NCBI GenBank assembly: GCA_021650915.1
Contig: CP091279.1
Span: forward strand, 720,001 to 752,000
Direction: 5' to 3'
Length of the DNA stretch: 32,000 nt
Source: Candidatus Brocadia sp.
GTDB taxonomy: Bacteria > Planctomycetota > Brocadiia > Brocadiales > Brocadiaceae
Within the stretch, counting starts at the first letter, position 1. Each line of letters starts with the position of its first letter. Shown piece by piece: positions 3,251 to 24,213 of this stretch. The notes under the pieces are model-generated. The model was not told the DNA's origin and ran no database searches. It saw only the letters and a program-made list of their open reading frames with translations. A program made the translations under genes and the position numbers.

Positions 3251-3290
3251 GGTGGATTAGCTGGTAGGAAGGAGGCGAATCGCCTCCAAC
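3251..3290 (+). repeat. REP-like GTAG-leader hairpin (ggtggattagctGGTAGGaaGGAGGCGaatCGCCTCC)
   Basis: GTAGG leader at 3264-3268, followed by a perfect 7-bp stem / 3-nt loop hairpin at 3271-3287. Same layout as the repeat families in the 9-20 kb array. Confidence 0.5.
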
Positions 3291-6293: not shown

Positions 6294-7592
6294 TATGTTC
6301 TCCACTTGTGTCGTCTCTCAGTCCTTCGCAAACCCTTCAAGCACAAAGCAATAGAGCGTCTATTCGATGATAAGTCAAAATATGTGCAGTTCAGGGATGA
6401 AATGGTAGATCGTTTTCTAATGGAACAGCACAAAAATTGGTTCAGTTTGCACCCAATTGTCCGCGAGATCGGTTTGCAGAAGTTAGCACTGTCTCCTGCG
6501 GATCTTCAACAAGCGCATAGTAGTGTTGCACCTTACTACACGCGTCACTTTGAGGCGAAACAGATCGTGGGTTGGGGAGCTTTAGGTGGTCACTTTGTCG
6601 AAGCACGCTATCATTTAACAAAAGCGGAGAAGGCAGAAGATTTAAGGGATATAGCTTCTCGATTTCAAAGTTATATATTTTCTACGTTGAGTGCGAGTTC
6701 TCCCATCCCCCATAACGCTGAGGAATTAGATGAACGTATCGCAGTTCTTTCTGCCATCCTTGAGTCGCCCGGTCCGAAAAGTCTAGAATATCACCTTGCC
6801 CGCTTGTTTTTGGCACGCAATCAGCGCAATGACCTCCGAAGAGGTCTACACCATGCCCACCGAGCAAAATCCAAAAGTGACAATGTGCAATCTTGGCTAT
6901 TATGCAGTGAAATACTGTCCAAGATGGGAAAGCACGAAGATGCAATAGAGGTACTGAAGCAAGGCATCAACCAGATACCTCCAAACAAAGCTCTGGTCGA
7001 TTTATATGATCGATGTGCTCGATTATTGACTCAATCTGGGCGATGCAATGAAGCAACTTGGACTCTGAATCGAGGTATTGATCGCATACCTCCTGATAAG
7101 GCTCTTGTCATATTGTATGACAACCTTGCCAGATTGTTAGCTCAAATGCAACGGTATAACGAAGCGATTACGATACTGAAGCAAGGCATTGACCGTATTC
7201 CGCCTGACAAAGCACTTGCCGTTTTGTACATTAGCTGTTGTGAGTTGCTTGTTCAGAAGGAAAGGTATGAAGAATCGCTTGCTATATTGAAACAAGGTGT
7301 CGCCTGCGTTCCTCCCAGTAAAGCCGCTGTCGATGTGTATTACCGTTACGGAGAGTTGTTAGCACAAAGAGGGCAATACTCAGATGCAATTGCCGTTCTG
7401 AAGCAGGGTATCGACCGTATTCCTCCCAATAAAGGGGTTTCGCTTATCTATGCTTTTTGTAGTGAGTTGCTGTTTGAAGGTGGTCAGCAGGAAGATGTGA
7501 ATGCCTTATTGAAGGAAGGCATTGATCGTGTTCCTCCTGATAAAGGAGTTGTGTCGATATATTTGAATTTTTGTAACACTTTAGTTCTTTGA
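6294..7592 (+). pseudogene. 5'-truncated STAND-NTPase-type C-terminal region with TPR-like repeats; 3' end also disrupted by an IS
   Basis: The frame opens right after the palindromic unit and has no credible start. A winged-helix-like segment (FSLHPIVREIGLQKL) is followed by helical repeats. The last repeat is cut by the IS TIR at 7573. Confidence 0.55.
6940..7572 (+). repeat. tandem 111-bp (37-aa) coding repeats, approx. 5.7 units
   Basis: The unit LKQGIDRIPPDKALxxLYxxxxxLLxQxxRYxEAIxx recurs at a 111-nt period (for example 6961, 7075, 7186). Confidence 0.8.
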
Positions 7593-8828
7593 AAAATTAA
7601 CAAGCGATTTTGCAAGCAAACCCAGAAGTCGTTTTCACCATAAGGGCATTTTTTGCGCTTGCCAGAAGATTTTCCACTGGATTGATTCTTTGTAATTCAG
7701 CAGAACGAAGCAGAGACATGAGGATGGCCTGTGTCTTAGCGCCATCCTCAGAGCGGTTCTGCTGTGAGACCTTTCTGGTCAATACTGGCTTTCGCATCTG
7801 TTGCTCAGCATGGTTATTATAGGGACTGACATCCTCATGTTCCAGGAACGTAAAGAGTTCCTTCGTCTGGCCATGATACCGATAGGTATTGCCCCGTTTT
7901 GCACTGCCTTTGGTTTTTCCTACACGGAGCCAATTAGCTGCCTGATAGCAAGTGCCTTGAAATCGCGCGGTATCAACAAAGGTCTCCGCCAAATACACGG
8001 GATGTCCGTAGACAGCTTCCCAGTCATCTGACAAACGCTTGAGGGCAAGGGATAATACCTTGGATGCAAGGTGTTTGACCGTAACCCAGGGGGGAATGAG
8101 GAATCGCACGTTACTGGCAATTAAATGCAAGTGGGTGCGTTTGGTGGTCTCATCCCATCCGATGAAACGGTCACGGTCTTTGACCTTCCATGCTGCGCTT
8201 GCCCATCCAAGACAGGCAACGACCTGATTGCCGATATGTACGATGTGCCTGACGTGTTCGCCAACAAGCCGGGGACATCCGAGGTAGTGGTAGTGATAGA
8301 GGAGATAACCCCAGAGGTAACTCTCTTGAGGGTCTTTTACCACCTGGATCGTCGGGATTTCATACCCGGTGATAGTGCCTCCCAGTGTGCTTTTGACAAA
8401 AAGGGGTATCTGATCAAATATCTTAGGTTTCAGATTGTTTTTTGGTCGTATGCGGCCTGGAAGCGCTACCAGGCCCTGTTCTTCCAATCGCAGAAGGAGG
8501 TCTCGTGCCGCGTATTCTTTCAGCTTGCCATTGGGCTGCACCCAGTTCCAACTTTTGCAAAGTTCACGGGAAATATAACTCCGCCCTTTGAGAAAATAAC
8601 TATCAATGAGCGCCTTGATAAAGGCTATATCGTCTGTATGCAGTTTCCGTGAACGGTATTGGAATAGTATAGGCTTCATAAACAGGTTCCTTTTCTCTGA
8701 AGCCTTTTATACCACAAAGGGAAAACTGACGCCAGCTTTTTTTGTATCTTAACGCCCTGATGGTTAAAACGCCTTCTGGGTTTGCTTATAAAATCGCTTG
8801 TTAATTTTTCAAAGAACTAAAGTGTTAC
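7573..8828 (-). mobile_element. IS66-like element bounded by 56-bp terminal inverted repeats
   Basis: 7573-7628 matches the reverse complement of 8773-8828 at 54 of 56 positions. The termini begin GTAA, as in IS66-family ends. No matching direct repeat flanks it (gaattttt versus ctgcaaat). Confidence 0.7.
7597..8679 (-). CDS. DUF4338-like protein fused in frame to an IS66-type transposase C-terminal segment
   Basis: The N-terminal approx. 275 aa (SRELCKSWNWVQPNGKLKEYAARDLLLRLEEQG ... CYQAANWLRVGKTKG) resemble DUF4338. The last approx. 80 aa (NNHAEQQMRKPVLTRKVSQQNRSEDGAKTQAILMSLLRSAELQRINP) resemble the IS66 C-terminal motif. The ORF ends inside the TIR. Confidence 0.6.
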   Translation of the reverse strand: MKPILFQYRSRKLHTDDIAFIKALIDSYFLKGRSYISRELCKSWNWVQPNGKLKEYAARDLLLRLEEQGLVALPGRIRPKNNLKPKIFDQIPLFVKSTLGGTITGYEIPTIQVVKDPQESYLWGYLLYHYHYLGCPRLVGEHVRHIVHIGNQVVACLGWASAAWKVKDRDRFIGWDETTKRTHLHLIASNVRFLIPPWVTVKHLASKVLSLALKRLSDDWEAVYGHPVYLAETFVDTARFQGTCYQAANWLRVGKTKGSAKRGNTYRYHGQTKELFTFLEHEDVSPYNNHAEQQMRKPVLTRKVSQQNRSEDGAKTQAILMSLLRSAELQRINPVENLLASAKNALMVKTTSGFACKIAC

Positions 8829-8914: not shown

Positions 8915-9030
8915 TTACGATAAGGGCAAACCCGGAGTGATCCGGGGACGCAAAGTAACAGGGTCTTTTGCAGGGGCGTACTCGTCTGCGTGCACCGCAC
9001 AGACAGATGACATGCGCCCTCTATAATCCC
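8915..9030 (+). promoter_or_regulatory. c-di-GMP-I (GEMM-I) riboswitch aptamer
   Basis: GGCAAACC-CGGA-GUGA-UCCG-GGGACGCAAAG-UAACAGGGUC (8924-8966) matches the two conserved GEMM-I blocks, which flank a hairpin capped by a GNRA tetraloop. A second long hairpin follows (AGGGGCG...CGCCCU). Confidence 0.7.
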
Positions 9031-9038
9031 AAAAAGAC

Positions 9039-9094
9039 AGCCTTACTGCCGAAGATGTTCAAAATGAATATTTTTACAGTAAGGCTTTTTTATT
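9039..9094 (+). terminator. intrinsic terminator / riboswitch expression platform
   Basis: 10-bp stem agccttactg (9039-9048) pairs with cagtaaggct (9077-9086), followed by TTTTTaTTT. The 28-nt loop is long for a simple terminator. Confidence 0.5.
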
Positions 9095-9133: not shown

Positions 9134-9154
9134 GGTGGGCACTGCCCACCCTAC
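9134..9154 (-). repeat. REP-like GTAG-leader hairpin, inverted orientation
   Basis: GGTGGGC act GCCCACC followed by CTAC. On the minus strand this reads GTAG plus hairpin. Confidence 0.5.
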
Positions 9155-9161
9155 CCCTGGC

Positions 9162-9187
9162 TGGTTCAATCGTCCGCGATTGAACCA
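9162..9187. repeat. perfect hairpin (11-bp stem, 4-nt loop) with TGGTTCA arm
   Basis: tggttcaatcg tccg cgattgaacca. Confidence 0.6.
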
Positions 9188-9251: not shown

Positions 9252-9278
9252 CTGGTTCAGTCTGCAAGACTGAACCAG
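9252..9278. repeat. perfect hairpin (12-bp stem, 3-nt loop) with CTGGTTCA arm
   Basis: ctggttcagtct gca agactgaaccag. Shares the CTGGTTCA arm start with the hairpin at 9162. Confidence 0.6.
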
Positions 9279-9344: not shown

Positions 9345-9541
9345 GCCGGGTAGGGTAGGCATCGCCTACCACGTATTTCGAATGCATGCGGGTAATTTAT
9401 ACGGATGTGGAATGAATGAAATGGTTGTGAACGATCTTGGCATGGAACGGATTTTGGTAACGGCGGGTTGTGCTTGCATTACTTCACATTTTGCCGGGTT
9501 TGATCTGGCAGGCGGCGCCATGCCCTACGTAAAAATTGTAT
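9345..9541 (+). repeat. A-type REPIN-like repeat, copy A1
   Basis: gccggGTAGG-GTAGGCatcGCCTAC hairpin, then a approx. 150-nt conserved core, then GGCAGGCggcGCCaTGCC-CTAC and gtaaaaattgta. Confidence 0.85.
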
Positions 9542-10291: not shown

Positions 10292-10520
10292 GTGCCCAGG
10301 AAATGGCACTGCTTTCTAGGGGGTGAAAGTCCCGACATGGTAAAAGCAGGAGCCATGTAGCTTGGATGGCAGGGGGTGATGGAAACATTACCTTCTGAAG
10401 CCCATCGACAAAGTCGGCGTAAGGCCGGTGTGCGAATATCCGGGTCGTAACTTACGTGAACGTAGATGTAGCCTCGTGAAAGTCAAGAACCACTGGCCGG
10501 GCTGGGGCTTGGTGTCACCC
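10292..10520 (+). mobile_element. group II intron 5' fragment (domain I part only)
   Basis: GUGCCCAGGAAAUGGCAC...GGGGGUGAAAGUCCC parallels the 5' end of intron 2 (GCGCCAAGGAAAGUUAGGCAC...GGGGUGAAAGUCCC). No RT ORF or domain V follows. Confidence 0.5.
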
Positions 10521-10555: not shown

Positions 10556-10673
10556 GTAGTTGAGTGGGGTGGATTAAGCGACAGCGAATCCACCAATCCG
10601 TCTTTTGTTGGGATATTATTGGTGGATTCGGCGCTAAAAGGCAAGCGCCTTAATCCACCCTACAAAAATTGTA
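10556..10673 (+). repeat. B-type REPIN-like repeat, copy B1
   Basis: GTAG leader, then GGTGGATTaagcgacagcgAATCCACC, a spacer, then GGTGGATTcggcgctaaaaggcaagcgccttAATCCACC-CTAC and aaaaattgta. Confidence 0.85.
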
Positions 10674-10864
10674 GCTCTATAGGTATCGCCTACCACGCAT
10701 TTCAAATGCATGCGGGAAATTTGTGCGGATGTGGAATGAATGAAATGGTTGTGAACGATCTTGACATGGAACGGATTTTGGTAATGGCGGGTTGCGCTTG
10801 CATTACCTCACATGTTACCGGGTTTGATCTGGCAGGCGGCGCCATGCCCTACGTAAAAATTGTA
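10671..10864 (+). repeat. A-type repeat, copy A2 (left hairpin degenerate)
   Basis: Roughly 90 percent identical to A1 across the core and right end (by eye). Confidence 0.85.
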
Positions 10865-10881
10865 TGGATACACAACTTGTA

Positions 10882-11016
10882 GCCGGGTAGGGTAGATTGC
10901 AACGGTACGAATGATTGGTGTTGGGTTTCACTCACGTTTTACCCAACCTACACAATTCGGTATTAAAGCCGGGTAAGATTGGGTTGAATGAAATGAAACC
11001 CAACGGATTTTTCAAT
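10882..11016 (+). repeat. C-type REPIN-like repeats, cluster C1
   Basis: GTTGGGTttcactcacgttttACCCAAC-CTAC, then gccggGTAAGaTTGGGTTgaatgaaatgaAACCCAAC. Confidence 0.8.
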
Positions 11017-11067
11017 GTTTATGAAGAGTTGGTGTTGGATTTTCATATGCCTTACCTGAAGTACCGA

Positions 11068-11854: not shown

Positions 11855-13808
11855 TCGCGCCAAGGAAAGTTAGGCACATTTTGCGGGGTGAAAGTCCCTG
11901 TCGGGTAAGGGATAGCCACCCACCCGTATCGAGTCTTGCGTCCAATGCGGAGCGTGTAAACGCGAACAAGAAGATTGGATGAGGCGTAGACAGAGAATTC
12001 TGTAGGCCGCAGGGGTGGTCACGCACCCTGAAGTGCTGGTACAGCTTCGAGATGACCTAACAAGCGGATGCCGAGGGGTTCAAGGTTTACCGAAGGCAAT
12101 ACAAGAACATCCGAAATGGCGAGGATGCGAAGATCCGCCGGAGTCTTCAGGCCGCGGCATGCAGAAACAGATGTGTCCAAGAACTTGGGAAGCCCCAATA
12201 GCTCCTGGAAGCAGAGCGGAACAGGCAGGCGGTGGAGTACGGTAAAAGGGAAAAAGCCGCTAGAAGCGATTGGGGTGTCTTATCAGGCATAGTACTCAGA
12301 GGTGGGGAAAGCCCGCTACAGGGGGAAGGACTTGACGGAAGTACGTAGCCCGCAAAGGAAACTTGAGCCGGACAATGCAGGGTCGGAAGAACTCAAGCAA
12401 ACCTCACTGCGGGGAATAGCAAACAAGGCGAAAGTCAACAAGCAACATCGGTTTCAGAATCTCAATAGGTGTCTGAATAAGTCACTGTTACGGGAGAGCT
12501 GGCGGGAGCTGAATAAGGATGCAGCCAGTGGCGTGGATAACGTTACAGCAGCAGAGTACGCAGAGCGCCTGGACAGCAACCTCCAAACATTGGCAGAGAG
12601 ACTGAAATCGAAGCGATACCGCGCCAAACTGGTGCGGCGCTGTTACATTCCTAAGGAAAACGGTAAAGAAAGACCCTTGGGCATACCAGCACTGGAAGAC
12701 AAGCTGGTGCAACTGGCCTGCACGAAATTGTTAACAGCAATATACGAGCAGGATTTTCTGGATTGTAGTCATGGGTACCGACCCAAACGCAGCGCGAAGG
12801 ATGCAGCAATAGTCCTGCGCAGGGAGTTACAAGGAGGGAGGTATGGCTACATCGTCGAGGCGGACATAAAAGGATTCTTCGATAATCTGGATCATGACTG
12901 GTTGCTGAAAATGCTGAGTCTTCGTATAGATGATCGGGCATTTCTGCACCTTATCAGCAAGTGGCTGAAAGCAGGAGTGCTTGATACCGATGGAACGGTG
13001 CTTCATCCGGAAAGTGGCTCTCCGCAAGGAGGAATTATCTCCCCGATCCTGGCGAATGTGTATCTGCACTACGCCCTGGATTTGTGGTTTCAGAAGGTGG
13101 TAAAAGCCCATTGTCGAGGTAAAGCGGAATTATGCCGCTATGCCGACGACTTTATCTGTGTGTTTCGTGATAAGCGAGATGCGGAAAGGTTTTATCAGGT
13201 GCTGCCAAAGCGGGTTGGAAAATTCTGCCTTCAGTTAGAGCAGAAGAAGACGCAGATTATGAGATTTAGTCGCTCTGATCCGCGCATGAAACAAGGGTTC
13301 AGCTTCCTGGGGTTTGAGTTTTACTGGAAGAAAGATCGTTGGGGGACACCACGAGTTATGTGCCGCACGTCCCGTAAGAAATTACAAGGGGCGTGTAGGA
13401 GGGTCAAGGAATGGATCAGGCAAAATCGGCATCTGCCAGGAAGTGAATTTTTCAAAGGATTAAACAGTCGGCTGAGAGGACACTACAATTATTATGGGAT
13501 AAAGTATAACTATCAATCGCTCAATCGCTTTTATAAATGGGCTATAGCATGTACCTTCAAATGGCTGAACAGGAGAGGCGGAAAGCGGAACAGTTATACA
13601 AAGGAGACGCTAGAGCGAATCCTGCGTCTCATAGGTATTGCAAGACCTCGAATTACGGAAGCCATTCGTTGAAAAATGTTTGTTTGTTGATGACGTCATG
13701 TACCGTGGAAGCGAGTACGACCGAGGAACCGGATGCGGGAAAACTGCACGTCCGGGACTGTGCGGGGGGTGCTGGGTAACTTACATTCCTACCGCGGAAT
13801 TTGTGATT
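11855..13808 (+). mobile_element. group II intron 2 (boundaries within about 15 nt)
   Basis: 5' GCGCCAAGGAAAG...GGGGUGAAAGUCCC, then the RT ORF. Domain V lies at approx. 13727-13758 (CCGGAUGCGGGAAAACUGCACGUCCGG). A domain-VI-like helix has a bulged A at 13791. Confidence 0.75.
12302..13672 (+). CDS. group II intron reverse transcriptase/maturase, no endonuclease domain
   Basis: 456 aa with RPLGIPALEDKLVQ, HGYRPKRSAKDA, PQGGIISPILANV, YADDFICVF and an X-domain-like RGHYNYYG. Start is a GTG in the track; the true start is uncertain. Confidence 0.9.
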   Translation: MGKARYRGKDLTEVRSPQRKLEPDNAGSEELKQTSLRGIANKAKVNKQHRFQNLNRCLNKSLLRESWRELNKDAASGVDNVTAAEYAERLDSNLQTLAERLKSKRYRAKLVRRCYIPKENGKERPLGIPALEDKLVQLACTKLLTAIYEQDFLDCSHGYRPKRSAKDAAIVLRRELQGGRYGYIVEADIKGFFDNLDHDWLLKMLSLRIDDRAFLHLISKWLKAGVLDTDGTVLHPESGSPQGGIISPILANVYLHYALDLWFQKVVKAHCRGKAELCRYADDFICVFRDKRDAERFYQVLPKRVGKFCLQLEQKKTQIMRFSRSDPRMKQGFSFLGFEFYWKKDRWGTPRVMCRTSRKKLQGACRRVKEWIRQNRHLPGSEFFKGLNSRLRGHYNYYGIKYNYQSLNRFYKWAIACTFKWLNRRGGKRNSYTKETLERILRLIGIARPRITEAIR

Positions 13809-13813
13809 ATTAA

Positions 13814-14005
13814 GCCGGGTAGCCGGGTAGGGTAGGCATCGCCTACCACGCATTTCGAATGCATGCGGGTAATTTATACGGATGTGGAACGGTTCAAATG
13901 AATGGGAACGACTCTGACATTGAACGGTTTCTTGCAATGGCGGGTTGTGCTTGCATTACTTCACATTTTGCCGGGTTTGATCTGGCAGGCGGTGCCATGC
14001 CCTAC
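13814..14005 (+). repeat. A-type repeat, copy A3 (divergent 48-nt internal segment)
   Basis: Same ends as A1. The right end runs directly into a RAYT-like start codon at 14037. Confidence 0.85.
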
Positions 14006-14036
14006 GTAAGATTTGTATGGATGGAAATATACAAAC

Positions 14037-14119
14037 ATGCCTAACTATCGGAGGGTGCGGATACCGGGGATAACCTATTTCTTTACGGTTGTTACCTACA
14101 AATTGAGCGCTCACTCAGC
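14037..14119 (+). pseudogene. 5' relic of a REP-associated tyrosine transposase (RAYT / IS200-like Y1 transposase) gene
   Basis: Encodes MPNYRRVRIPGITYFFTVVTYK, the characteristic N-terminus of RAYT/TnpA(REP) proteins. Homology stops after approx. 22 codons. Confidence 0.6.
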
Positions 14120-14132
14120 CGTGGAATTCTGG

Positions 14133-16119
14133 GTAGAGTAGGGAACTGGCTATCTATAGTTTAGGTTGGCCTATCTGTTTCTGCCCCTTTCGTCTGGCAG
14201 TGCCTCAGTAGCCTCACCATGCTATTTCGCCAGTCCTCCCTCATCAAACCGTGCTTGCGGTTTTCCCGCACACGGCTTTCCGATGCCCTTCACCATAAGG
14301 CATGCGCTATCTCCATACCGCTGTGGTCGGCACTTTGTAAAGACCATATCTCTCATATAACATGCTGTTTGTGTATCGCTTAAGCCCTGTCTTCCTGTCT
14401 CTGATTTTATGACGTCTGTACAGGTGTATCCGAAGCCGGAATTGAGCGTGTTCTCTTACTTGCTTGAGGACTCTGCTGCAATTGCGATAATGGAAGTATC
14501 CTGTCCATCCTATCAGTGCCGTATTCACCTCTTTGACTATCGCTTCAAACGGTAGAGGGGACCTGTTCCTGCTGGTAAGTGCCGTAATGTGGTCTTTTAT
14601 CTTCTTGAGAGATTTCTTCGACGGCTGAACATGGGGATAACTCTTCCCCGTGCGCCAATTCTTCCTCTTTTGAAGTTCAAACCCAAGAAAGGTAAATCCC
14701 TCTTTCATGGCGTCTACTACACGGCTCTTTGCCTCGTTTAACGTCAGTCCCAGTTTGTCCAGCACCCGCTTTGTTATCGCCATTGGCTGTTCAGTTCCTT
14801 GCCTGCACAGTACGACAAAGTCATCGGCAAAGCGTACTAATCTGGCTCCGAGTTTCTTCTCCAGTCGATGTCTCTCCCATATCCTGTCCAGGAGGTGCAG
14901 GTAGAGATTGGCTAGTAACGGTGAGATTACTCCTCCTTGAGGTGTGCCTTTCCGGTTCCCTTTACCTCCGCCGATGTTCCTTTGTTTTCCGTCTCTGCCT
15001 TTTTCTATGACCGGAGCCTTGAGCCACGTCTTTATCAGGTGCAGTATCTCACCGTCACTGATGCGCTCTGCTACCACAGCCATAAGCTTGGCATGGGGGA
15101 TGGTGTCAAAGTATTTGGACAGGTCGGCGTCTATGATTTCGGTATATCCCTTGTTGAGGGTATATGCTACGTCATCTACGGCATCGTGGGCAGATTTCTT
15201 CGGCCTGAACCCGTATGAACATTCGCAGAAATCGGCTTCAAAAATGGGTTCTATGACCAGTTTTACGGCCATCTGCGCTACCCTGTCACGGATGGTGGGA
15301 ATGCCTAACGGGCGTTCCGTTCCGTCCGTCTTGGGTATCATTACTCGTTTTACAGGGCTTGCTTGATAGGTCTTGCTCCTGAGTGCTTCTTGCAGTTCCG
15401 CCAGAAAGGCGGATACCCCTTCTCTTTCCTCGATGGCCTCGAAGGTTACGCCGTCTATCCCGGCGCTCCCTTTGTTGGCACGGACAAGGGTGTAAGCATG
15501 ACTGAGGATGTCTGCCCGGAATACCTTGTCATAGAGGGCGTAGAAGCGGTAGGTTGGTTCTTGCTTGGCCTTTCGGTATAGCTTCCTCTGTAGTATCCTG
15601 ATCTTTTCCGGGGTTGTTAGCATTTCTGCAATCTCCCTTTTCCTCTACTCTTCGGTTGCATGAACAAAGCAGGGTTCCTTTCCTCGAACAGGGTTTTGTT
15701 GTCCCTTGTCCTCAAACGGTATCATGAACCCCTCCGACTCCCTATACAGCCCGCTGTGATTTCGTTTCCTTATACAGAGCGGTTTATGCCCCTCAAACAT
15801 TACTGCATAGGGTCTCCAGCACTGGTCTGTTTATCTTCCACTGCATGCCGCCCCTGCTACCCCGGAAGATATTACAGACTCCTTCCGTTGCCTGAGTCTG
15901 CAATCTTCGGCCTTCCCCACGTGTCCACGGGGTCGGCATCTTCAATTTGTATTGACGAGGCTACTTGTAGGTTCGCTTGCGCTGCGGCCTGCGGTTTTGC
16001 CAATTGGGAACTTACGACCCCTGATTGCTCAGACGCCGCTCCCTTGAACTACCGGGGTGAACGGATAATTCCCCGGACGGGACTTTAACCCGTAAGAATA
16101 AACAAATGTTACTGCGTAC
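14133..16119 (-). mobile_element. group II intron 3, boundaries defined by an intact paralogous target site
   Basis: A 1987-bp insertion relative to the uninterrupted paralog at 16748-16793. The minus strand starts GUACGCAG and ends CUCUAC. Canonical domain V lies at 14246-14278 (AAGCCGUGUGCGGGAAAACCGCAAGCACGGUUU). Confidence 0.85.
14307..15623 (-). CDS. group II intron reverse transcriptase/maturase, no endonuclease domain
   Basis: 438 aa with RPLGIPTIRDRVAQMA, YGFRPKKSAHDA, PQGGVISPLLANLYLH, FADDFVVLC and GWTGYFHYRN. Confidence 0.9.
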   Translation of the reverse strand: MLTTPEKIRILQRKLYRKAKQEPTYRFYALYDKVFRADILSHAYTLVRANKGSAGIDGVTFEAIEEREGVSAFLAELQEALRSKTYQASPVKRVMIPKTDGTERPLGIPTIRDRVAQMAVKLVIEPIFEADFCECSYGFRPKKSAHDAVDDVAYTLNKGYTEIIDADLSKYFDTIPHAKLMAVVAERISDGEILHLIKTWLKAPVIEKGRDGKQRNIGGGKGNRKGTPQGGVISPLLANLYLHLLDRIWERHRLEKKLGARLVRFADDFVVLCRQGTEQPMAITKRVLDKLGLTLNEAKSRVVDAMKEGFTFLGFELQKRKNWRTGKSYPHVQPSKKSLKKIKDHITALTSRNRSPLPFEAIVKEVNTALIGWTGYFHYRNCSRVLKQVREHAQFRLRIHLYRRHKIRDRKTGLKRYTNSMLYERYGLYKVPTTAVWR

Positions 16120-16165
16120 GGACAGCATACTTAATTATTGACATTATTTTTAACGTAACACTTTA

Positions 16166-16210
16166 GCCGGGTAGGTTGGGTTGAATGAAATGAAACCCAA
16201 CGAATTTTTC
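16166..16210 (+). repeat. C-type repeat, single hairpin copy C2
   Basis: gccggGTAGGTTGGGTTgaatgaaatgaAACCCAACgaatttttc. Confidence 0.8.
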
Positions 16211-16221
16211 TTTATGCCAAG

Positions 16222-16494
16222 CTAACGGTAAATATCCTTACGATGGCCTATTCGTATAATGTGAACTACTTTTTGAGGAGAATGTACTTCGTAGATGATG
16301 CGGTAATCCCCACTTCGTAAGGAATAGCAACCTTGTTTTTTACCTTTGAGATGTTTACCTGAATAGGGGTTGAATGAGAGGGAGTCAATAAGCTTAACGA
16401 TGCGTTTGGTAACGGTAGGATTTGCATACTGAAGTTTTTTTATATCACGGCTTGCTTTTGGGTCAACCTTAATTTCAAATTTGCTTGAGCTCAC
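16222..16494 (-). CDS. RelE/ParE-family toxin
   Basis: 90 aa with LRSGDYRIIYEV...VVHIIRIGHRKDIY, the classic RelE/ParE C-terminal signature. Confidence 0.85.
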   Translation of the reverse strand: MSSSKFEIKVDPKASRDIKKLQYANPTVTKRIVKLIDSLSFNPYSGKHLKGKKQGCYSLRSGDYRIIYEVHSPQKVVHIIRIGHRKDIYR

Positions 16495-16684
16495 GCTTCA
16501 AGGTTTCCCATGATATGGACTTGCCTTTACGGAAACGTTCCCTGGCCTGAGTAATTTCACGGTCCAATTTTGGAGTTGGTGTATAGCCAGCTTCTTCAAG
16601 CAGGGTAATATACTCTTCTACAGGAATTAAAACCATTGGTTTGTCAATGGTAAGGGGGTGCATTAAAATTGCTTTTTGAGCCAT
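16475..16684 (-). CDS. antitoxin partner of the RelE/ParE toxin
   Basis: 69 aa. Overlaps the toxin start by 20 nt. Small acidic/basic protein in the antitoxin position; the family was not recognised with certainty. Confidence 0.6.
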   Translation of the reverse strand: MAQKAILMHPLTIDKPMVLIPVEEYITLLEEAGYTPTPKLDREITQARERFRKGKSISWETLKRELKQI

Positions 16685-16747
16685 GGTTTACCTCACAATG
16701 GGATGATATAATTTAACAAACAAATATATAGACTGTCAAGGTAAAAT

Positions 16748-16793
16748 GCGGAATTCCGGGGATACCATACTTAATTATCGACATTATTTTTAG
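16748..16793 (+). repeat. D-type repeat: intact (intron-less) paralog of the intron 3 insertion site
   Basis: gcggaattccggggataccatacttaattatcgacattattttta matches the joined flanks of intron 3 (14119-14132 plus 16120-16152) at about 41 of 47 positions. Confidence 0.8.
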
Positions 16794-16794
16794 A

Positions 16795-16909
16795 GTCTGG
16801 TAGGGTGGATTAAGCGACAGCGAATCCATCAATCCATCTTTTGTTGGGATATTATTGGTGGATTCGGCGCTAAAAGGCAAGCGCCTTAATCCACCCTACA
16901 AAAATTGTA
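16795..16909 (+). repeat. B-type repeat, copy B2
   Basis: gtctgGTAGGGTGGATT...AATCCACCCTACaaaaattgta. Near-identical to B1 and B4. Confidence 0.85.
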
Positions 16910-16911
16910 AC

Positions 16912-17052
16912 CCGATAGGCATCGCCTACCACGTATTTCGAATGCATATTGTGAGCGATCTTGACATGGAACGGATTTTGGTGATGACGGGTTGTGCTTG
17001 CATTACTTTACATTTTGCCGGGTTTGATCTGGCAGGCGGTGCCTTGCTCTAC
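16912..17052 (+). repeat. A-type repeat, copy A4 (36-nt internal deletion, degenerate right end)
   Basis: Aligns to A7 except for loss of gcgggaaatttgtgcggatgcggaatgaatgaaatg. The right end reads gccttgctCTAC. Confidence 0.8.
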
Positions 17053-17674: not shown

Positions 17675-17768
17675 CAGGCAGGTTGGGTTGGATGAAACGA
17701 AACCCAACGAATTTTTCAACGTTACGCATGATTGGTGTTGGGTTTCACTCACGTTTTACCCAACCTAC
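17675..17768 (+). repeat. C-type REPIN (two inverted hairpins), copy C3
   Basis: cagGTTGGGTTggatgaaacgaAACCCAAC, a spacer, then GTTGGGTttcactcacgttttACCCAAC-CTAC. Confidence 0.8.
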
Positions 17769-17778
17769 ATAATTTACA

Positions 17779-17880
17779 GCCGTGTAGCTGGGTAGGGTAG
17801 GCATCGTCCTACCACACATTTTGGATGCACGTGGATAATTTTTGCGGGATAATGTTTCTGACGTTGAACTGATTTTATAT
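17779..17880 (+). repeat. A-type repeat, copy A5 (degenerate, left half only)
   Basis: gccgtGTAGctggGTAGGGTAGGCatcgtCCTACC, followed by a decayed core. Confidence 0.6.
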
Positions 17881-18075
17881 TGGCATTGACAGGGAGAAAA
17901 AAATGATTGCTATCCCTATTTCAAATGAATAATTTGATGATCATGGAGATGATACCGGCAATAACAAAGCCTAGTGTGCAGACATATTAATTACAAATTA
18001 TATATTGTGGACAATTTTAGCTATATCGCGCTGCAAAACAGCATTTATATGTTTCGTTATTAATATGTCTCTACA

Positions 18076-18246
18076 CTAGCATCCACTTAACGAGATTTAT
18101 CTCGATTTTTAATACTTTAATTTCTGCTTTAATGTCTGTCAAATCGGACTCGCTATGCGTAAAGTGTTTATCGTAATCGGCAATAGCTGAGGCCGCTGCC
18201 TTTGCTTTTTCGTCCGAAGTGCCGGCTTCTTTGAGTGCTTCGTAAA
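18076..18246 (-). pseudogene. 5'-truncated fragment of a small coiled-coil protein gene
   Basis: The frame reads ...LYEALKEAGTSDEKAKAAASAIADYDKHFTHSESDLTDIKAEIKVLKIEINLVKWMLV-stop. It has no start and is cut at its 5' end by the partial B-type repeat. Confidence 0.3.
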
Positions 18247-18287
18247 GTCTGGTAGAGGGGATTAAGCGACAGCGAATCCGTCAATTC
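18247..18287 (+). repeat. B-type repeat, partial copy B3
   Basis: gtctgGTAGaGGGGATTaagcgacagcgAATCCgtcaattc. Confidence 0.7.
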
Positions 18288-18941: not shown

Positions 18942-19122
18942 GTAGCCGGGTAGGCACACCTACCACGTATTTCGAATGCATGCGGGAAATTTATGCGGAT
19001 GCGGAATGAATGAAATGATTGTGAGCGATCTTGACATGGAACGGATTTTGGCAATGGCGGGTTGTGCTTGCATTACTTCACATTTTGCCTGGTTTGATCT
19101 GGCAGACGGTGTCATGCCCTAC
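18942..19122 (+). repeat. A-type repeat, copy A6
   Basis: Left hairpin variant GGTAGGCacaCCTACC. Core and right end conserved. Runs into a RAYT-like start codon at 19154. Confidence 0.85.
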
Positions 19123-19153: not shown

Positions 19154-19230
19154 ATGCCTAACTATCGGAGGGTACGGATACCGGGGATAACCTATTTCTT
19201 TACGGTTGTTACTTACAAATTGAGCACTCA
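19154..19230 (+). pseudogene. second 5' relic of a RAYT gene
   Basis: MPNYRRVRIPGITYFFTVVTYK again. Homology with the 14037 copy ends at the same point (ctcactcag). Confidence 0.6.
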
Positions 19231-19298
19231 CTCAGAAAGCACGGTGAATCATCAAGGCGAAGTCGCTGTATCTTTGCAGTCGCTGCGGTAAGTTGTTT

Positions 19299-19855: not shown

Positions 19856-20050
19856 GCCGGGTAGGGTAGGCATCGCCTACCACGTATTTCGAATACATGC
19901 GGGAAATTTGTGCGGATGCGGAATGAATGAAATGATTGTGAGCGATCTTGACATGGAACGGATTTTGGTAATGGCGGGTTGCGCTTGCATTACTTCACAT
20001 TTTGCCGGATTTGATCCGACAGGCGGCGCCATGCCCTACGTAAAAATTGC
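19856..20050 (+). repeat. A-type repeat, copy A7
   Basis: Full-length copy. The ATG of the apparent internal frame is mutated to ATA. Confidence 0.85.
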
Positions 20051-20062
20051 GTGAATACACAA

Positions 20063-20176
20063 GTCTGGTAGGGTGGATTAAGCGACAGCGAATCCCCCAA
20101 TCCATCTTTTGTTGGGATATTATTGGTGGATTCGGCGCTAAAAGGCAAGCGCCTTAATCCACCCTACAAAAATTGT
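20063..20176 (+). repeat. B-type repeat, copy B4
   Basis: Near-identical to B2. Confidence 0.85.
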
Positions 20177-20247
20177 AACCCGATAGGCATCGCCTACCAC
20201 GTATTTCAAATGCATGCGGGTAATTTGTGCGGATGCGGAATGAATGA
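20177..20247 (+). repeat. A-type repeat, copy A8 (left third only)
   Basis: Homology ends after ggaatgaatgaa. Confidence 0.75.
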
Positions 20248-20341
20248 AGATGATTTATTCTGTTAATTTGCAACCATCTTTACCTGCTTCGTTATCCATA
20301 GCGCGGCACAGCCGCAACCAAATTTCCTTTATGAAAGCGGG

Positions 20342-20539: not shown

Positions 20540-23500
20540 TTATACGATAATCCCCTTTTCCGCAATACCAGGATCGTTCTCCAATGCCTTCTTAAACTTA
20601 TGTTCCTTGTGCCAGGCATTCAGGCAAGGAATGATGAATACGCTGACCAATGCCATAGCCATGCCTCCAATAGAGGGAATTGCCATGGGTTTTGCCACCT
20701 CGGCGCCGGCGCCTGTTTCCCATAGGATAGGCATGAGTCCAATAAATGTGGTGGCAGCCGTCATCATACAGGGACGTATCCTTCTCGTGCCTGCCATGAG
20801 GACCGTATCCCGAATGTCCTGAACGCTCCTCATCCTCTTTTCGCCGAAGAGATCGTTGATATACGTGGTAATGAGGACTGAATCGTCGTCCACGATGCCA
20901 AAGATGGAGATGAAACCCACCCAAACGGCGACACTGAAGTTATATCCAAACAGGTATTGAAGCCAGACACCGCCCGCTATGGCCGTTGGAATCCCTGCAA
21001 CGAGGATAAACATGGTTTGTGGAAATGATTTGAATGCTATGAAAATCAGGACAAAACCCACAAACATTGATAAGGGCACAAGAATTTGCAACCGATTTCT
21101 TGCCCTGACCTGGTTTTCGAACTGGCCACTCCACTGGATAAAGTAGCCGTGAGGCAGCATAACCTTTTGTGCCACGACCTTAGATGCCTCTTCAACAAAG
21201 CTTAAGGGGTCTCTGCCACGTACGTTCATGAGAACATACGCCCTCAGGAGGGCATTTTCACTGCTGATCATGGCTGGCCCCATCACGTATCTGACATCGG
21301 CTACCTGAGTAAGAGGGATAAGCGCACCCGTGGAACCGGGGACATAAATCCTTTTCAGTGCATCGAAGTTATCCCTGAGCTCCCGACTATACCTGACCCG
21401 CACCGGGTATCGATGGCGACCCTCTACCGTTGTCGTAATGTTTTCTCCACCGATAGCGGTCTCAATGATATCCTGCACGTCCTTGATATTGACGCCGTAG
21501 CGGGCAATCTCCTCACGTTTGATCTTGAATTCCAGATAGGGCTTGCCAGTAACCCGCTCTGCATAGAGGTCAGCTACCCCAGGCACATCACGCAGCGCCT
21601 TTTCGACATCAAGGGCCAATTGCTGGATAACGTTCAGATCTGGCCCAAAGACCTTGGCTCCCACTGATGTACGGATACCGGTGGCCAGCATGTCAATTCG
21701 GTTTACGATGGGTTGTGTCCATATATTTGCCACGCCCGGTATCCTCATAGCCTCATCCATTTCCTGAATGAGTTCCTGCTTGGTAATCGTCCGTTCATCA
21801 GGCAAAAAGAGGTGGAAAACAGGGTGAAGGAACGAGGGCACATAATTTAAAAATTTGTACTCGATCTTTTTTTTGCGCCATTCTTCCCTTGGTTTCAGGG
21901 CAACGACGGTCTCAAACATCTCGACTGGCGCCGGGTCTGTGGGGGTTTCAGCCCTGCCTAATTTACCAACCACCATGTCGATTTCGGGAAAGGACTTTAT
22001 GATCATGTCCTGTTTCTGCATGACTTTGAGGGCGTCCGTTAAGGCCACGCTGGGCAACATTACCGGCATGAAGAGGATCGAACCTTCATCAAGGGGAGGC
22101 ATAAATTCCCGCCCTAATTTTTTTGCCGCAAAGACGGATGAGACAATAATAGCAAGGGGAATTGCAAGGAATGTCTTCTTATTATTTAATACCCACTTAA
22201 GGACAGGCTGATAACCCTTCAGGAGCATCCTGGAGGAGAAATTCTCTTCCATGGGTTTTAGCTTGCCCTTGATCAGAAAGGCGCAGAGTATGGGCACGAG
22301 GGTAATAGCCATGATGACAGACGAACCGATGGCAATGGTCTTTGTCCAGGCCAATGGCTTAAAAAGTTTCCCCTCCTGGCCGGTAAGTCCAAATACGGGG
22401 AAGAACATACAAATAGTTGTTAAGGCTGCAAAGAATATGGAACCGCCAACTTCTTTTGATGCATCAAGGATGATCTGCGGTCTGCTTTTTTTACCCTTTT
22501 GTTCTATGAGGTTTCGAAAGATATTTTCTGTCATAACGATGGACATATCGCTCACCTCTCCAATGGCAATGGCAATACCCGTGAGGGACATGATATTGGA
22601 ATCGATGCCCATAAAATACATACACAGGAAGGAGATCAGGATGGATATGGGGAATCCCAGACAGCAGATAATGATACTCCGAACATGCAACAGGAAGATA
22701 GCAACAACAAGAGAAGTGATAATGATTTCTTCTATCAGCGCCTCTCTCAGGGTGTCAATAACCCGGTAGATAAGACCCTCTCTATCATAAAAGGGCACAA
22801 TCTTTACGCCCGGTGGCAATCCCGGCTCTATCTCATTAATTTTCGCTTTTACCCTTTTAATCACCTCCAAAGGGTTTTGCCCCTGACGCATGATAACAAT
22901 ACCACCGGTAACCTCTGCACCCTCCTTATCAAGCGCGCCGCGCCGGAAATCTCCTCCAATCTGAACCGTGGCAATATTTTTTACAAATACTGGCACACCG
23001 TTGAAACTGCCTATCGTGATGTTTTCAATATCCGTAACATTCTTGATAAATCCAAGGCCACGGATAATGAACTCCATATTATTGCTTTCCACTACTTTGG
23101 CGCCCACGTCGATATTGCTTCTGCGAACGGCTTCGTATACCATCCCGACGGTCATGTTGTAGGCCAGTAATTTATTGGGGTCAACGTCGACCTGATACTG
23201 TTTGACAAAACCGCCTACCGCAGCCACCTCTGATACACCCTCGACGGCATTCAATTGGTAGCGGATGTACCAGTCCTGAACGGAGCGCAGTTGTCCCAGA
23301 TCGTATCCTTCACCTTCCACGGTATACCAGAAGATTTGGCCAAGTCCTGTGGCGTCGGGACCGAGCCGTGGGGTGACGTCTTTTGGGAGTAATTGCTGGA
23401 TAAAGTTTAATCTCTCCAGCACCCGCGAACGCGCCCAGTAGAATTCAACGTTGTCCTTGAAGATAATAAAGATCATGGAAAAGCCGAATCCTGATTGTGA

Positions 23501-23749
23501 CCGGATGACCTTCACGCCGGGTACGCCAAGGAGATTGACGGTAAGCGGATAGGTAACCTGATCTTCCACGTCCTGGGGGCTGCGTCCCGGCCAATCGGTA
23601 AAGACGATGCACTGGTTCTCACCGACGTCCGGGATGACATCCATATTGATGTTCTTCAATCCGAAGATGCCACCGAATATCACCAGGAGATAGAAGCAGA
23701 TGACAAGGAATCGGTTTCTGAGGCAGAGTTCAATGAGTCTATTGATCAT
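20540..23749 (-). CDS. cusA: CusA-type heavy-metal (Cu/Ag) RND efflux pump
   Basis: 1069 aa, collinear by eye with E. coli CusA. Segments ILFMPVMLP, PVEMFETVV and NRIDMLATGI align with the regions carrying the CusA methionine triad. Confidence 0.9.
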   Translation of the reverse strand: MINRLIELCLRNRFLVICFYLLVIFGGIFGLKNINMDVIPDVGENQCIVFTDWPGRSPQDVEDQVTYPLTVNLLGVPGVKVIRSQSGFGFSMIFIIFKDNVEFYWARSRVLERLNFIQQLLPKDVTPRLGPDATGLGQIFWYTVEGEGYDLGQLRSVQDWYIRYQLNAVEGVSEVAAVGGFVKQYQVDVDPNKLLAYNMTVGMVYEAVRRSNIDVGAKVVESNNMEFIIRGLGFIKNVTDIENITIGSFNGVPVFVKNIATVQIGGDFRRGALDKEGAEVTGGIVIMRQGQNPLEVIKRVKAKINEIEPGLPPGVKIVPFYDREGLIYRVIDTLREALIEEIIITSLVVAIFLLHVRSIIICCLGFPISILISFLCMYFMGIDSNIMSLTGIAIAIGEVSDMSIVMTENIFRNLIEQKGKKSRPQIILDASKEVGGSIFFAALTTICMFFPVFGLTGQEGKLFKPLAWTKTIAIGSSVIMAITLVPILCAFLIKGKLKPMEENFSSRMLLKGYQPVLKWVLNNKKTFLAIPLAIIVSSVFAAKKLGREFMPPLDEGSILFMPVMLPSVALTDALKVMQKQDMIIKSFPEIDMVVGKLGRAETPTDPAPVEMFETVVALKPREEWRKKKIEYKFLNYVPSFLHPVFHLFLPDERTITKQELIQEMDEAMRIPGVANIWTQPIVNRIDMLATGIRTSVGAKVFGPDLNVIQQLALDVEKALRDVPGVADLYAERVTGKPYLEFKIKREEIARYGVNIKDVQDIIETAIGGENITTTVEGRHRYPVRVRYSRELRDNFDALKRIYVPGSTGALIPLTQVADVRYVMGPAMISSENALLRAYVLMNVRGRDPLSFVEEASKVVAQKVMLPHGYFIQWSGQFENQVRARNRLQILVPLSMFVGFVLIFIAFKSFPQTMFILVAGIPTAIAGGVWLQYLFGYNFSVAVWVGFISIFGIVDDDSVLITTYINDLFGEKRMRSVQDIRDTVLMAGTRRIRPCMMTAATTFIGLMPILWETGAGAEVAKPMAIPSIGGMAMALVSVFIIPCLNAWHKEHKFKKALENDPGIAEKGIIV

Positions 23750-24179: not shown

Positions 24180-24213
24180 CCTCCGTCTTTCATCCTAGGT
24201 CATGTATTGTGCA

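Follow-up and report, generated by a model that had tools for sequence, protein, structure and literature searches.

Probable GTAG-tagged REP elements, mostly head-to-head dimers, in a variable region of an anammox Brocadiaceae genome

We analysed a 32,000-nucleotide stretch of DNA (the whole of which is referred to as the window) from a metagenome-assembled genome (MAG) of the Brocadiaceae, a family of anammox bacteria. Within it, the interval 10556-11016 is occupied by members of three families of hairpin repeats, termed here A, B and C. The evidence set out below makes it very probable that this interval is a cluster of repetitive extragenic palindromes (REPs) tagged with GTAG, mostly head-to-head dimers resembling REPINs (two inverted REPs in one long hairpin), and of the kind made by REP-associated tyrosine transposases (RAYTs), of which RAYT1 and RAYT2 denote two lineages. 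The following features stand in the interval.

10564..10663 (+): B-type head-to-head REP dimer; REP1 at 10564-10594 (tag GTGG, stem GGTGGATT/AATCCACC), REP2 at 10621-10663 ending in CTAC; fold z -6.9
10664..10673 (+): AAAAATTGTA tail after the B element, as after all three B copies of the window and the copy in locus L179
10674..10852 (+): A-type copy; left hairpin decayed (10674-10694, no GTAG), right hairpin and CTAC intact (10831-10852)
10853..10875 (+): GTAAAAATTGTATGGATACACAA, remnant of the leader preceding the RAYT1 start codon, from comparison with 14006-14036 and with RAYT1 upstream regions in relatives
10880..10896 (+): A-type left-leader stub GTAGCCGGGTAGGGTAG, cut off before the hairpin (repeat-family membership)
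10897..10951 (+): right half of a C-type dimer, comprising spacer and REP2 GTTGGGT..ACCCAAC-CTAC (10920-10951); 93% identity to 17714-17774
10973..11057 (+): decayed C-type dimer; REP1 at 10973-11004 (tag GTAA), REP2 eroded (~11030-11057); nhmmer match 10976-11057

A first-pass annotation of this DNA had proposed that three repeat classes share the design GTAGG-hairpin ... hairpin-CCTAC, and that each is represented in the interval by an outward-facing hairpin pair. The design was recovered in canonical copies of all three families, which read GTAG-hairpin ... hairpin-CTAC (A at 9350-9528, 13827-14005 and 19861-20039; B at 16800-16899 and 20068-20167; C at 17678-17768). The strings quoted for the interval are a consensus from such other copies, and the interval itself departs from it. 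Its B dimer is complete, though with the left tag GTGG (10564-10567), which is the tag homologous to those of other copies; the GTAG at 10557-10560 sits 7 nt off the B stem. The left end of its A copy reads GCTCTATAGGTATCGCCTACC, without GTAGG, and folds at -1.7 kcal/mol (z -0.7). Its C halves are swapped and partly decayed, running hairpin-CTAC (10920-10951) and then GTAAG-hairpin (10973-11004), and do not form one outward-facing pair. The canonical C pair has itself the left tag GCAG.

A repeat search of the window returned the three families at 3-8 copies each in 32 kb. Hairpins were counted under a fixed rule (perfect stem of at least 7 bp, loop of 3-30 nt, GTAG or CTAC directly abutting), which gave 10 in the window against a mean of 0.28 and a maximum of 2 in 100 dinucleotide shuffles. 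The stems are perfect and 7-8 bp long, and over 100 additional loci came from other genomes and metagenomes, as is characteristic of short multi-copy palindromes. The GTAG/CTAC tag at the hairpin foot is conserved across copies, with the decayed forms GTGG, GTAA, GCAG and TAAG. Every copy in the window is extragenic, lying between toxin-antitoxin modules, introns and other genes (9.1-20.3 kb). Open reading frames (ORFs) inside the A element (e.g. 9366-9521, -) were rejected as coding because the copies differ by non-triplet indels. An Rfam search with A, B and C produced no match, whether at gathering score or with E relaxed to 1.

The annotation had suggested folding the elements as single-stranded DNA (ssDNA). 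For B, the predicted folds were far more stable than those of shuffled sequences (-30 kcal/mol and z -6.9 for 10556-10667; z -8.9 for 16797-16899), and the complete C copy at 17676-17768 reached z -3.7. Both fold as a long hairpin whose arms pair across the spacer, as in a REPIN; for B this is the minimum-free-energy structure. The whole A element folds no better than shuffles (z -0.15) and has two different stems; its conserved structure is confined to the hairpins at its ends, exactly those that RNAalifold predicted from 25 A copies, with nothing in the spacer. Of all the stems, only that of the A-type right hairpin carries a variable 1-nt bulge, which some species lack. The A type is a head-to-head REP dimer and not a REPIN in the strict sense.

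Per-class alignment, also proposed by the annotation, bore out its expectation of compensatory change. Among 25 A copies, 97.7% of stem cells were paired, against 30-55% with the partners slid; four pairs had changed on both sides, a result reached in 0 of 500 shuffles. Examples from A are the replacement of GGCAGGC by GGCGGGC and GGTGGGC from one species to another and a compensated G:C to A:T exchange in the window copy at 19101-19122. The right-hand CTAC of the A type, which was not fixed by the search, was kept in 21 of the 25 copies. When the B dimer of the interval was aligned with 22 other copies, 97.4% of stem cells were paired (32-56% with the partners slid), and again four pairs had changed on both sides.

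The three classes had been called sequence-unrelated, a description that the stems contradict. Two compensated pairs separate B (GGTGGATT/AATCCACC) from C (GTTGGGTT/AACCCAAC), and the A hairpins GGTAGGC, GGCAGGC and GGTGGGC fall in the same series, to which the loci add GGCGGAT, GGTGGGT and GGTGGAC. One theme, GGYRGRY, runs through all the stems, varied by compensated changes. Dimers of mixed stems, with both stems fully paired, are also common: GGCGGAT+GGTGGAT (7 cases), GGCAGGC+GGTAGGC (6), GGTAGGC+GGTGGGC (5) and GGTGGAT+GTTGGGT (1, in locus L132, joining a B stem to a C stem).

A and B were also said to share an identical 3' tail. The common tail is real, with the difference that A has an extra GT before AAAAATTGTA: A ends CCCTAC-GT-AAAAATTGTA, which is the start of the conserved leader before the RAYT1 ATG, and B ends CCCTAC-AAAAATTGTA. 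The B tail occurs in the three window copies and in the independent copy of the same species in L179, and is missing after the B copies of other genomes. In Brocadia, AGCC(G/A)G precedes the GTAG in the left REPs of both A and C, and an A/T-rich right tail is common to all three classes. Element types may thus have been joined, or strands transferred between them, at the tag.

The tie to RAYTs proposed in the first-pass annotation was upheld. Twice in the window, at 14037 and 19154, an A-type element is followed by a 31-nt leader, an ATG and the codons MPNYRRVRIPGITYFFTVVTYK, after which similarity to anything stops. RAYT family membership was judged by the profiles NCBIfam NF047646 and Pfam PF01797 with their curated cut-off, together with the HUH motif and the catalytic Tyr region. 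The 22-codon stub matches positions 1-21 only of NF047646 (18.9 bits against a cut-off of 80, E 1e-3) and a RAYT hidden Markov model (HMM) at E 4e-10, and a 71-amino-acid relative, scoring E 4e-19, runs on into an HUH motif (LLPDHIH). A homologue search with a 45-amino-acid stub retrieved two short fragments only and no close full-length RAYT, and a phmmer search of the PDB with a 27-amino-acid stub gave only noise. The window fragments appear to be pseudogene stubs that keep the N-terminus of a RAYT. In the window they are duplicated along with the repeat. The related contig L006 has the same truncated ORF at the orthologous site, so the truncation is an old one, and the second copy in the window arose by duplication of A together with the stub.

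Intact genes were found in relatives. A genome scan for GTAGGGTAGGCAYYGCCTACC, with one genome per species, yielded 101 stretches, mostly from Brocadia, Kuenenia and Scalindua. Five of these loci carry an intact RAYT1 of 183-186 amino acids (L098, L106, L074, L101 and L044), and a sixth copy is cut by the end of its locus (L099). Upstream of all six stands GTAG-GGTAGGC..GCCTACC, a spacer of ~100-190 nt, and a GGCAGGC, GGCGGGC or GGTGGGC hairpin-CTAC placed ~20-30 nt before the ATG. This proximal hairpin is present beside RAYT1 in L054 and L087 as well, and a hairpin-CCTAC follows the RAYT1 stop in L106, L074, L101, L057 and L087. In L057 and L102, the place upstream of RAYT1 where the proximal hairpin belongs is taken by a group II intron. 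RAYT1 of relatives scores 200.7 bits on NF047646 and E 4.8e-46 to the E. coli TnpAREP structure (PDB 4ER8); full-length RAYT relatives reach 200.7, 185.6 and 132 bits, with HIH and YxHFNPVKHG aligned to 4ER8. As RAYT1 in relatives is flanked by A hairpins and passes the RAYT profile, the A type is the head-to-head REP dimer of the RAYT1 5' side, which has been copied on its own. Scalindua has this dimer in a compact form (spacer ~25 nt), tandemly repeated before the RAYT.

RAYT2, a second lineage with 44% identity to RAYT1 and 132 bits on NF047646, lies ~0.6-1.2 kb from RAYT1 in two Brocadia relatives. It is a pseudogene in L057 and a deleted remnant in L101, both flanked by C-type hairpins. 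Its 5' flank reads TAGG-TTGGGTT..AACCCAAC, and the 3' flank of the L101 remnant reads GTTGGGTT..AACCCAGC-CTTAC, so that the C-type hairpins stand in inverted orientation.

B hairpins accompany a third set. A metagenome scan for GTAGGGTGGATT..AATCCACC returned at least 120 stretches; among the matches listed, B hairpins lie directly upstream of a RAYT in at least six (L202, L172, L130, L160, L184 and L151) and also 3' of the RAYT stop in L202, L172, L130 and L160. These RAYTs have 42-49% identity to RAYT1 and 44-56% to one another, with an identical B hairpin. In relatives and metagenome contigs, RAYTs were therefore found bracketed by inverted REPs of their own class, the arrangement known as a REPtron, in three combinations (RAYT1 with A, RAYT2 with C, the third set with B), so that each class has a cognate RAYT somewhere. 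The first-pass conjecture of several co-resident RAYT lineages gains direct evidence from these genomes, while the window shows remnants of RAYT1 only.

Related hairpins extend beyond Brocadia. Matches to the A-left 21-mer outside that genus, including those in other phyla, are mostly a single, doubly tagged palindrome, GTAGGGTAGGCATTGCCTACCCTAC, and not A dimers (L008, L020 and L103 in Nostoc; L072 in Thioploca; L007 and L037 in Kuenenia), and Calothrix (L036) has a C-type dimer with a stem identical to that of the window. REP stems are accordingly common to several phyla.

The repeats, their folds, the compensatory changes, the adjacency to RAYTs and the family membership of those RAYTs were all directly observed. 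The annotation had named a lack of conserved tags, a lack of compensatory changes and RAYTs flanked by unrelated sequence as grounds for abandoning its proposal; none of these was borne out.

We propose the following explanation. The unit is a hairpin of 7-8 bp whose foot carries GTAG, and two inverted units give GTAG-hairpin ... hairpin-CTAC. Such elements would be non-autonomous, made and rearranged by RAYT (TnpAREP), an HUH/Y1 enzyme. As is established for the family, RAYT would bind the folded hairpin on ssDNA, use GTAG as contact and guide, and cut and rejoin the strand at a short site adjoining the hairpin; GTAG-dependent binding and cleavage of REPs on ssDNA are known for the E. coli, S. 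maltophilia and Marinomonas enzymes (PMC8266576). The A-type dimer corresponds to the 5' flank of RAYT1, with a third hairpin-CCTAC after the RAYT1 stop, C-type hairpins would belong to the second RAYT lineage, and B-type hairpins to the third. For this genome, we infer cleavage, mobility and the assignment of enzyme to class.

Besides the features of the interval, the window holds the following copies and RAYT1 fragments.

9134..9154 (+): single REP, GGTGGGCactGCCCACC-CTAC (GGTGGGC..GCCCACC-CTAC); stem as in the RAYT1-proximal hairpin of L101 and L106; fold z -3.6
9350..9528 (+): intact A-type element, GTAG-GGTAGGCatcGCCTACC, 136-nt spacer, GGCAGGCggcGCCaTGCC-CTAC
13827..14005 (+): intact A-type element
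14037..14118 (+): putative truncated RAYT1 start, in which MPNYRRVRIPGITYFFTVVTYK gives way to unrelated sequence; matches to NF047646 positions 1-21 (E 1e-3) and to the RAYT HMM (E 4e-10)
16171..16204 (+): single C-type REP1, GTAG-GTTGGGTT..AACCCAAC; fold z -3.1
16800..16899 (+): B-type dimer, both tags intact; fold z -8.9
16910..17052 (+): A-type copy without left GTAG and with an internal deletion
17678..17768 (+): complete C-type head-to-head dimer, left tag GCAG, right tag CTAC; fold z -3.7
17792..17847 (+): partial A-type left end, hairpin disrupted by a 1-nt insertion
18252..18282 (+): decayed B-type REP1, GTAG-AGGGGATT..AATCCGTC (repeat-family membership)
18950..19122 (+): A-type copy with a 5-nt deletion at the left tag; right hairpin GGCAGAC..GTCaTGCC, compensated G:C to A:T
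19154..19235 (+): second putative truncated RAYT1 start (RAYT HMM); same truncated ORF at the orthologous site of L006
19861..20039 (+): A-type element
20068..20167 (+): B-type dimer
20178..20250 (+): partial A-type left part

Several observations weigh against our explanation. The window contains no intact RAYT; the carriers of RAYT2 and of the B-flanked RAYTs are other genomes or metagenome contigs, the window having RAYT1 remnants only. The counts of compensatory changes are small, and the alignments of outside copies are partly biased, the search pattern having fixed one hairpin and tag per locus. The A element as a whole does not fold better than shuffles, and its non-palindromic spacer of 100-190 nt is atypical for a REPIN. 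Copies diverge by 6-19%. No filled-versus-empty REP site was found among four near-identical strains, whose polymorphisms comprise a MITE (miniature inverted-repeat transposable element) of the terminal-inverted-repeat (TIR) type, an intron position and a 34-bp indel. The source being a MAG, joins at repeats (e.g. 14121) may be assembly artefacts.

Two copies stand at orthologous sites in related species, at ~86-91% identity: the A type by the RAYT1 remnant, and the C-type REP at 16171..16204, whose counterpart in Ca. Brocadia pituitae (L102) adjoins the same ParE module. Together with the decayed copies and the truncated RAYT1 starts, this placement indicates that most of the REP population here is old and partly eroded, rather than the product of a recent burst.

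The same observations lend some credit to the view that the repeats are REPs by origin and now act only as structural elements of the host (terminators, mRNA stabilisers or protein-binding sites), with no transposase activity left in the lineage. We consider this possible, though on the unlikely side. It agrees with the restriction of the window to truncated RAYT1 starts, with the decay of many copies, with the retention of two copies at orthologous sites and with the lack of insertion polymorphism among the four strains. Against it, intact RAYT1 persists in several Brocadia relatives, and RAYT-bearing contigs are typically 1-2 kb (those with the closest RAYT homologues for the window's own species come from unrelated samples), so that a MAG can easily miss an intact gene. 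As to origin, this view is compatible with ours.

It is also conceivable, but doubtful, that a single RAYT, RAYT1, reads GTAG plus any paired GGYRGRY stem and serves A, B and C, the classes being drift variants of one population. Mixed-stem dimers are common, the A type being heterotypic too; one and the same B hairpin accompanies RAYTs with no more than 44-56% mutual identity; and the AGCC(G/A)G-GTAG left leader of A and C and the A/T-rich right tail of A, B and C are shared. In vitro, stem swaps affect group 3 TnpAREP moderately, and TnpAEc cleaves a foreign REP (PMC8266576). However, RAYT2 has C hairpins on both sides in Brocadia relatives where it stands beside RAYT1 with its own A hairpins, and B hairpins flank a further RAYT set. 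Family-specific REPtrons are moreover the published rule (Di Nocera, De Gregorio and Rocco 2013, PMC3733652), and for TnpASm the loop base and perfect pairing of the stem are important (PMC8266576). A broader form of relaxed reading seems similarly improbable to us, namely that in the Brocadiaceae one RAYT recognises GTAG, an extended leader or tail common to the classes and any paired GGYRGRY stem, so that stems drift by compensated changes, dimers mix and near-identical REPs accompany ~45%-identical RAYTs across phyla. If true, the system would offer a natural experiment on the stringency with which an HUH enzyme recognises its hairpin.

We judge it highly improbable that the repeats are MITEs of an insertion sequence (IS) with a DDE transposase, or fragments of the region's group II introns, which also end in CCTAC. 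A true TIR-type MITE and three group II introns do occur in the window, the introns end TYCCTAC, and the A ends form an imperfect inverted repeat. However, neither target-site duplications nor matching ends of a DDE transposase element were seen, A, B and C have no Rfam intron match, and the hairpins flank RAYTs in many genomes that have no intron nearby. The sole hairpin that fits an intron end is that at 3264-3287.

Least probable of all is that the elements are integron attC sites between gene cassettes, a reading prompted by the small toxin-antitoxin modules between the repeats and by the C stem GTTGGGT/ACCCAAC, which by eye fits the core consensus GTTRRRY/RYYYAAC, and rejected since the core order is reversed (RYYYAAC...GTTRRRY in attC, GTTGGGT..ACCCAAC in the C unit) and neither the window nor the 23-kb related locus L001 has an integrase gene, while A and B lack the motif, the repeats do not occur one per cassette in a single orientation, and the same hairpins flank RAYT genes.

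The hairpin at 3264-3287 had been listed with that at 9134-9154 as an extra single hairpin of the REP design. The latter is indeed a member of the stem series. The former reads GGAGGCGattCGCCTCC-TTCCTAC on the minus strand, with 3 nt between GTAG and the stem, and lies ~140 nt past the stop of the intron reverse transcriptase at 3406. All group II introns examined end TYCCTAC (in the window at 3264-3287 (-), 13786-13792 (+) and 14133-14140 (-); at 100-117 of L057; also in L102), a terminus that contains the same pentamer as the REP tag. From its placement and this shared ending, the hairpin is most likely a group II intron 3' end; Rfam gave no score for it. An orphan intron 5' fragment lies at 10317-10455, just upstream of the interval. 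The idea that introns insert directly at REP hairpins in the window was not supported, the nearest REP lying ~55 nt from an intron 5' end.

All of the repeats under study lie in a variable island at 9.1-20.3 kb. Its contents include six or more small toxin-antitoxin modules, of the types PIN/Phd, ParE, DUF4258 (partner MqsA-like or DUF2283) and DUF4160/DUF2442, as well as two of the window's three group II introns and one intron fragment. The toxin-antitoxin module at 16210-16746 has 86% identity to Candidatus Brocadia pituitae. Four NCBI assemblies encode a CusA-like protein identical to that at 20540-23749 (-), and share ~99-99.9% identity with the window from position 14121 onwards. Where position 14121 meets position 19630 of L001, the intron at 14121-16090 is common to both and the left side is wholly different (a RAYT stub in the window, an unrelated gene and IS110 in L001), which reflects either intron mobility or a MAG misjoin at the repeat.

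The MITE is ~109 bp long (17971-18079) with terminal inverted repeats CTAGTGTGCAGACATATTAAT...ATTAATATGTCTCTACACTAG. A second copy lies at 9437-9553 of L001, a 99%-identical strain, and the equivalent window site at 24196 is empty, from which it follows that the MITE was mobile recently. The 34-bp stretch 18079-18112, directly after the MITE, is missing from strain L002. A 33-nt repeat, GGAYAGCATACTTAATTATYGACATTATTTTTA, is found at 16120-16152 by the intron 5' end and at 16760-16792 by the B element, and again at ~5850-5880 of L006. A c-di-GMP-I riboswitch was detected at 8915-9053 (+) (58 bits against a cut-off of 35), with no obvious gene downstream; 3' of it follow, in order, a terminator-like hairpin (9039-9086), the REP hairpin, two 11-12 bp hairpins of related stem (9162-9187 and 9252-9278) and the A-type repeat. 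Further upstream, the ORF at 7597-8679 (-), possibly a defence-gene remnant or fusion, has a DruA (Druantia) domain match at E 3e-36 and an IS66 transposase fragment, and a TPR-repeat gene (6306-7592) has six 111-nt periodic repeats at 6939-7551, an ordinary periodicity for a repeat protein.

If our explanation is correct, the GTAG-tagged REP/RAYT system extends to anammox bacteria, a host group in which it is new and apparently not yet described: none of the top-ranked results of a full-text search for RAYT with an anammox taxon combined the two in one paper. The long-spacer, non-palindromic A dimer conserved across Brocadia species and the clear continuum of compensated stems are also new. 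The pattern of several GTAG families with family-specific RAYT loci has already been published (PMC3733652). Repeats, introns, MITE and toxin-antitoxin modules together mark variable genome regions, and the typical 1-2 kb length of RAYT-bearing contigs suggests that repeats interrupt assemblies. Compensated stems, mixed dimers and the long-spacer A element offer comparative material on hairpin recognition by RAYTs.

Among known systems, the IS200/IS605 family shares the HUH/Y1 enzyme, the subterminal ssDNA hairpins and a 4-nt guide 5' of the hairpin that chooses the cleavage site. In contrast to that family, RAYT1 scores 21.7 bits on the IS200 model (cut-off 55) against 200.7 on the RAYT model, and the repeats here far outnumber the gene. 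The likeness to the E. coli REP/BIME-TnpAREP system (BIME, bacterial interspersed mosaic element; 4ER8; Messing 2012, PMC3479197; Corneloup 2021, PMC8266576) lies in the full-length match of RAYT1, with HUH and YxHxNPVKHG, and in the GTAG at the hairpin foot. In published assays, GTAG is recognition element and cleavage guide and is essential for cleavage, and stem sequence is moderately important for group 3 enzymes (PMC8266576). The E. coli REP stem is bulged, as its enzyme requires, whereas the stems described here are short and perfect, like those of group 3 REPs.

REPIN-RAYT systems comprise several classes per genome, each with its own RAYT, and persist for long periods (Bertels and Rainey 2011, PMC3116915; Bertels et al. 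2017, PMC5581495). As in the REPINs of Pseudomonas fluorescens SBW25, B and C join two inverted REPs in one long hairpin, and REPs flank the RAYT. Unlike in SBW25, the A type has no doublet hairpin and RAYT1 fragments are duplicated with the repeat; the contigs being often short, the single-copy status of the gene is uncertain.

The closest parallel is the GTAG-tagged REP superfamily, for which the survey cited above describes 24 families of 6-13 bp hairpins with an unpaired GTAG at one end (PMC3733652). Head-to-head dimers with the tags outside, typically 20-100 bp apart, are the commonest arrangement; sub-families are set by complementary stem changes; and several families with repeat-specific RAYT loci may share a genome, with examples from the PVC superphylum and cyanobacteria. 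Anammox Brocadiaceae are not among the genomes named in the text consulted. The A spacer is unusually long in comparison (100-190 nt) and conserved across species, and the B and C loops are long (11-23 nt). In their perfect tagged hairpins, head-to-head dimers, several families and compensated stem variants, the Brocadiaceae elements resemble this superfamily.

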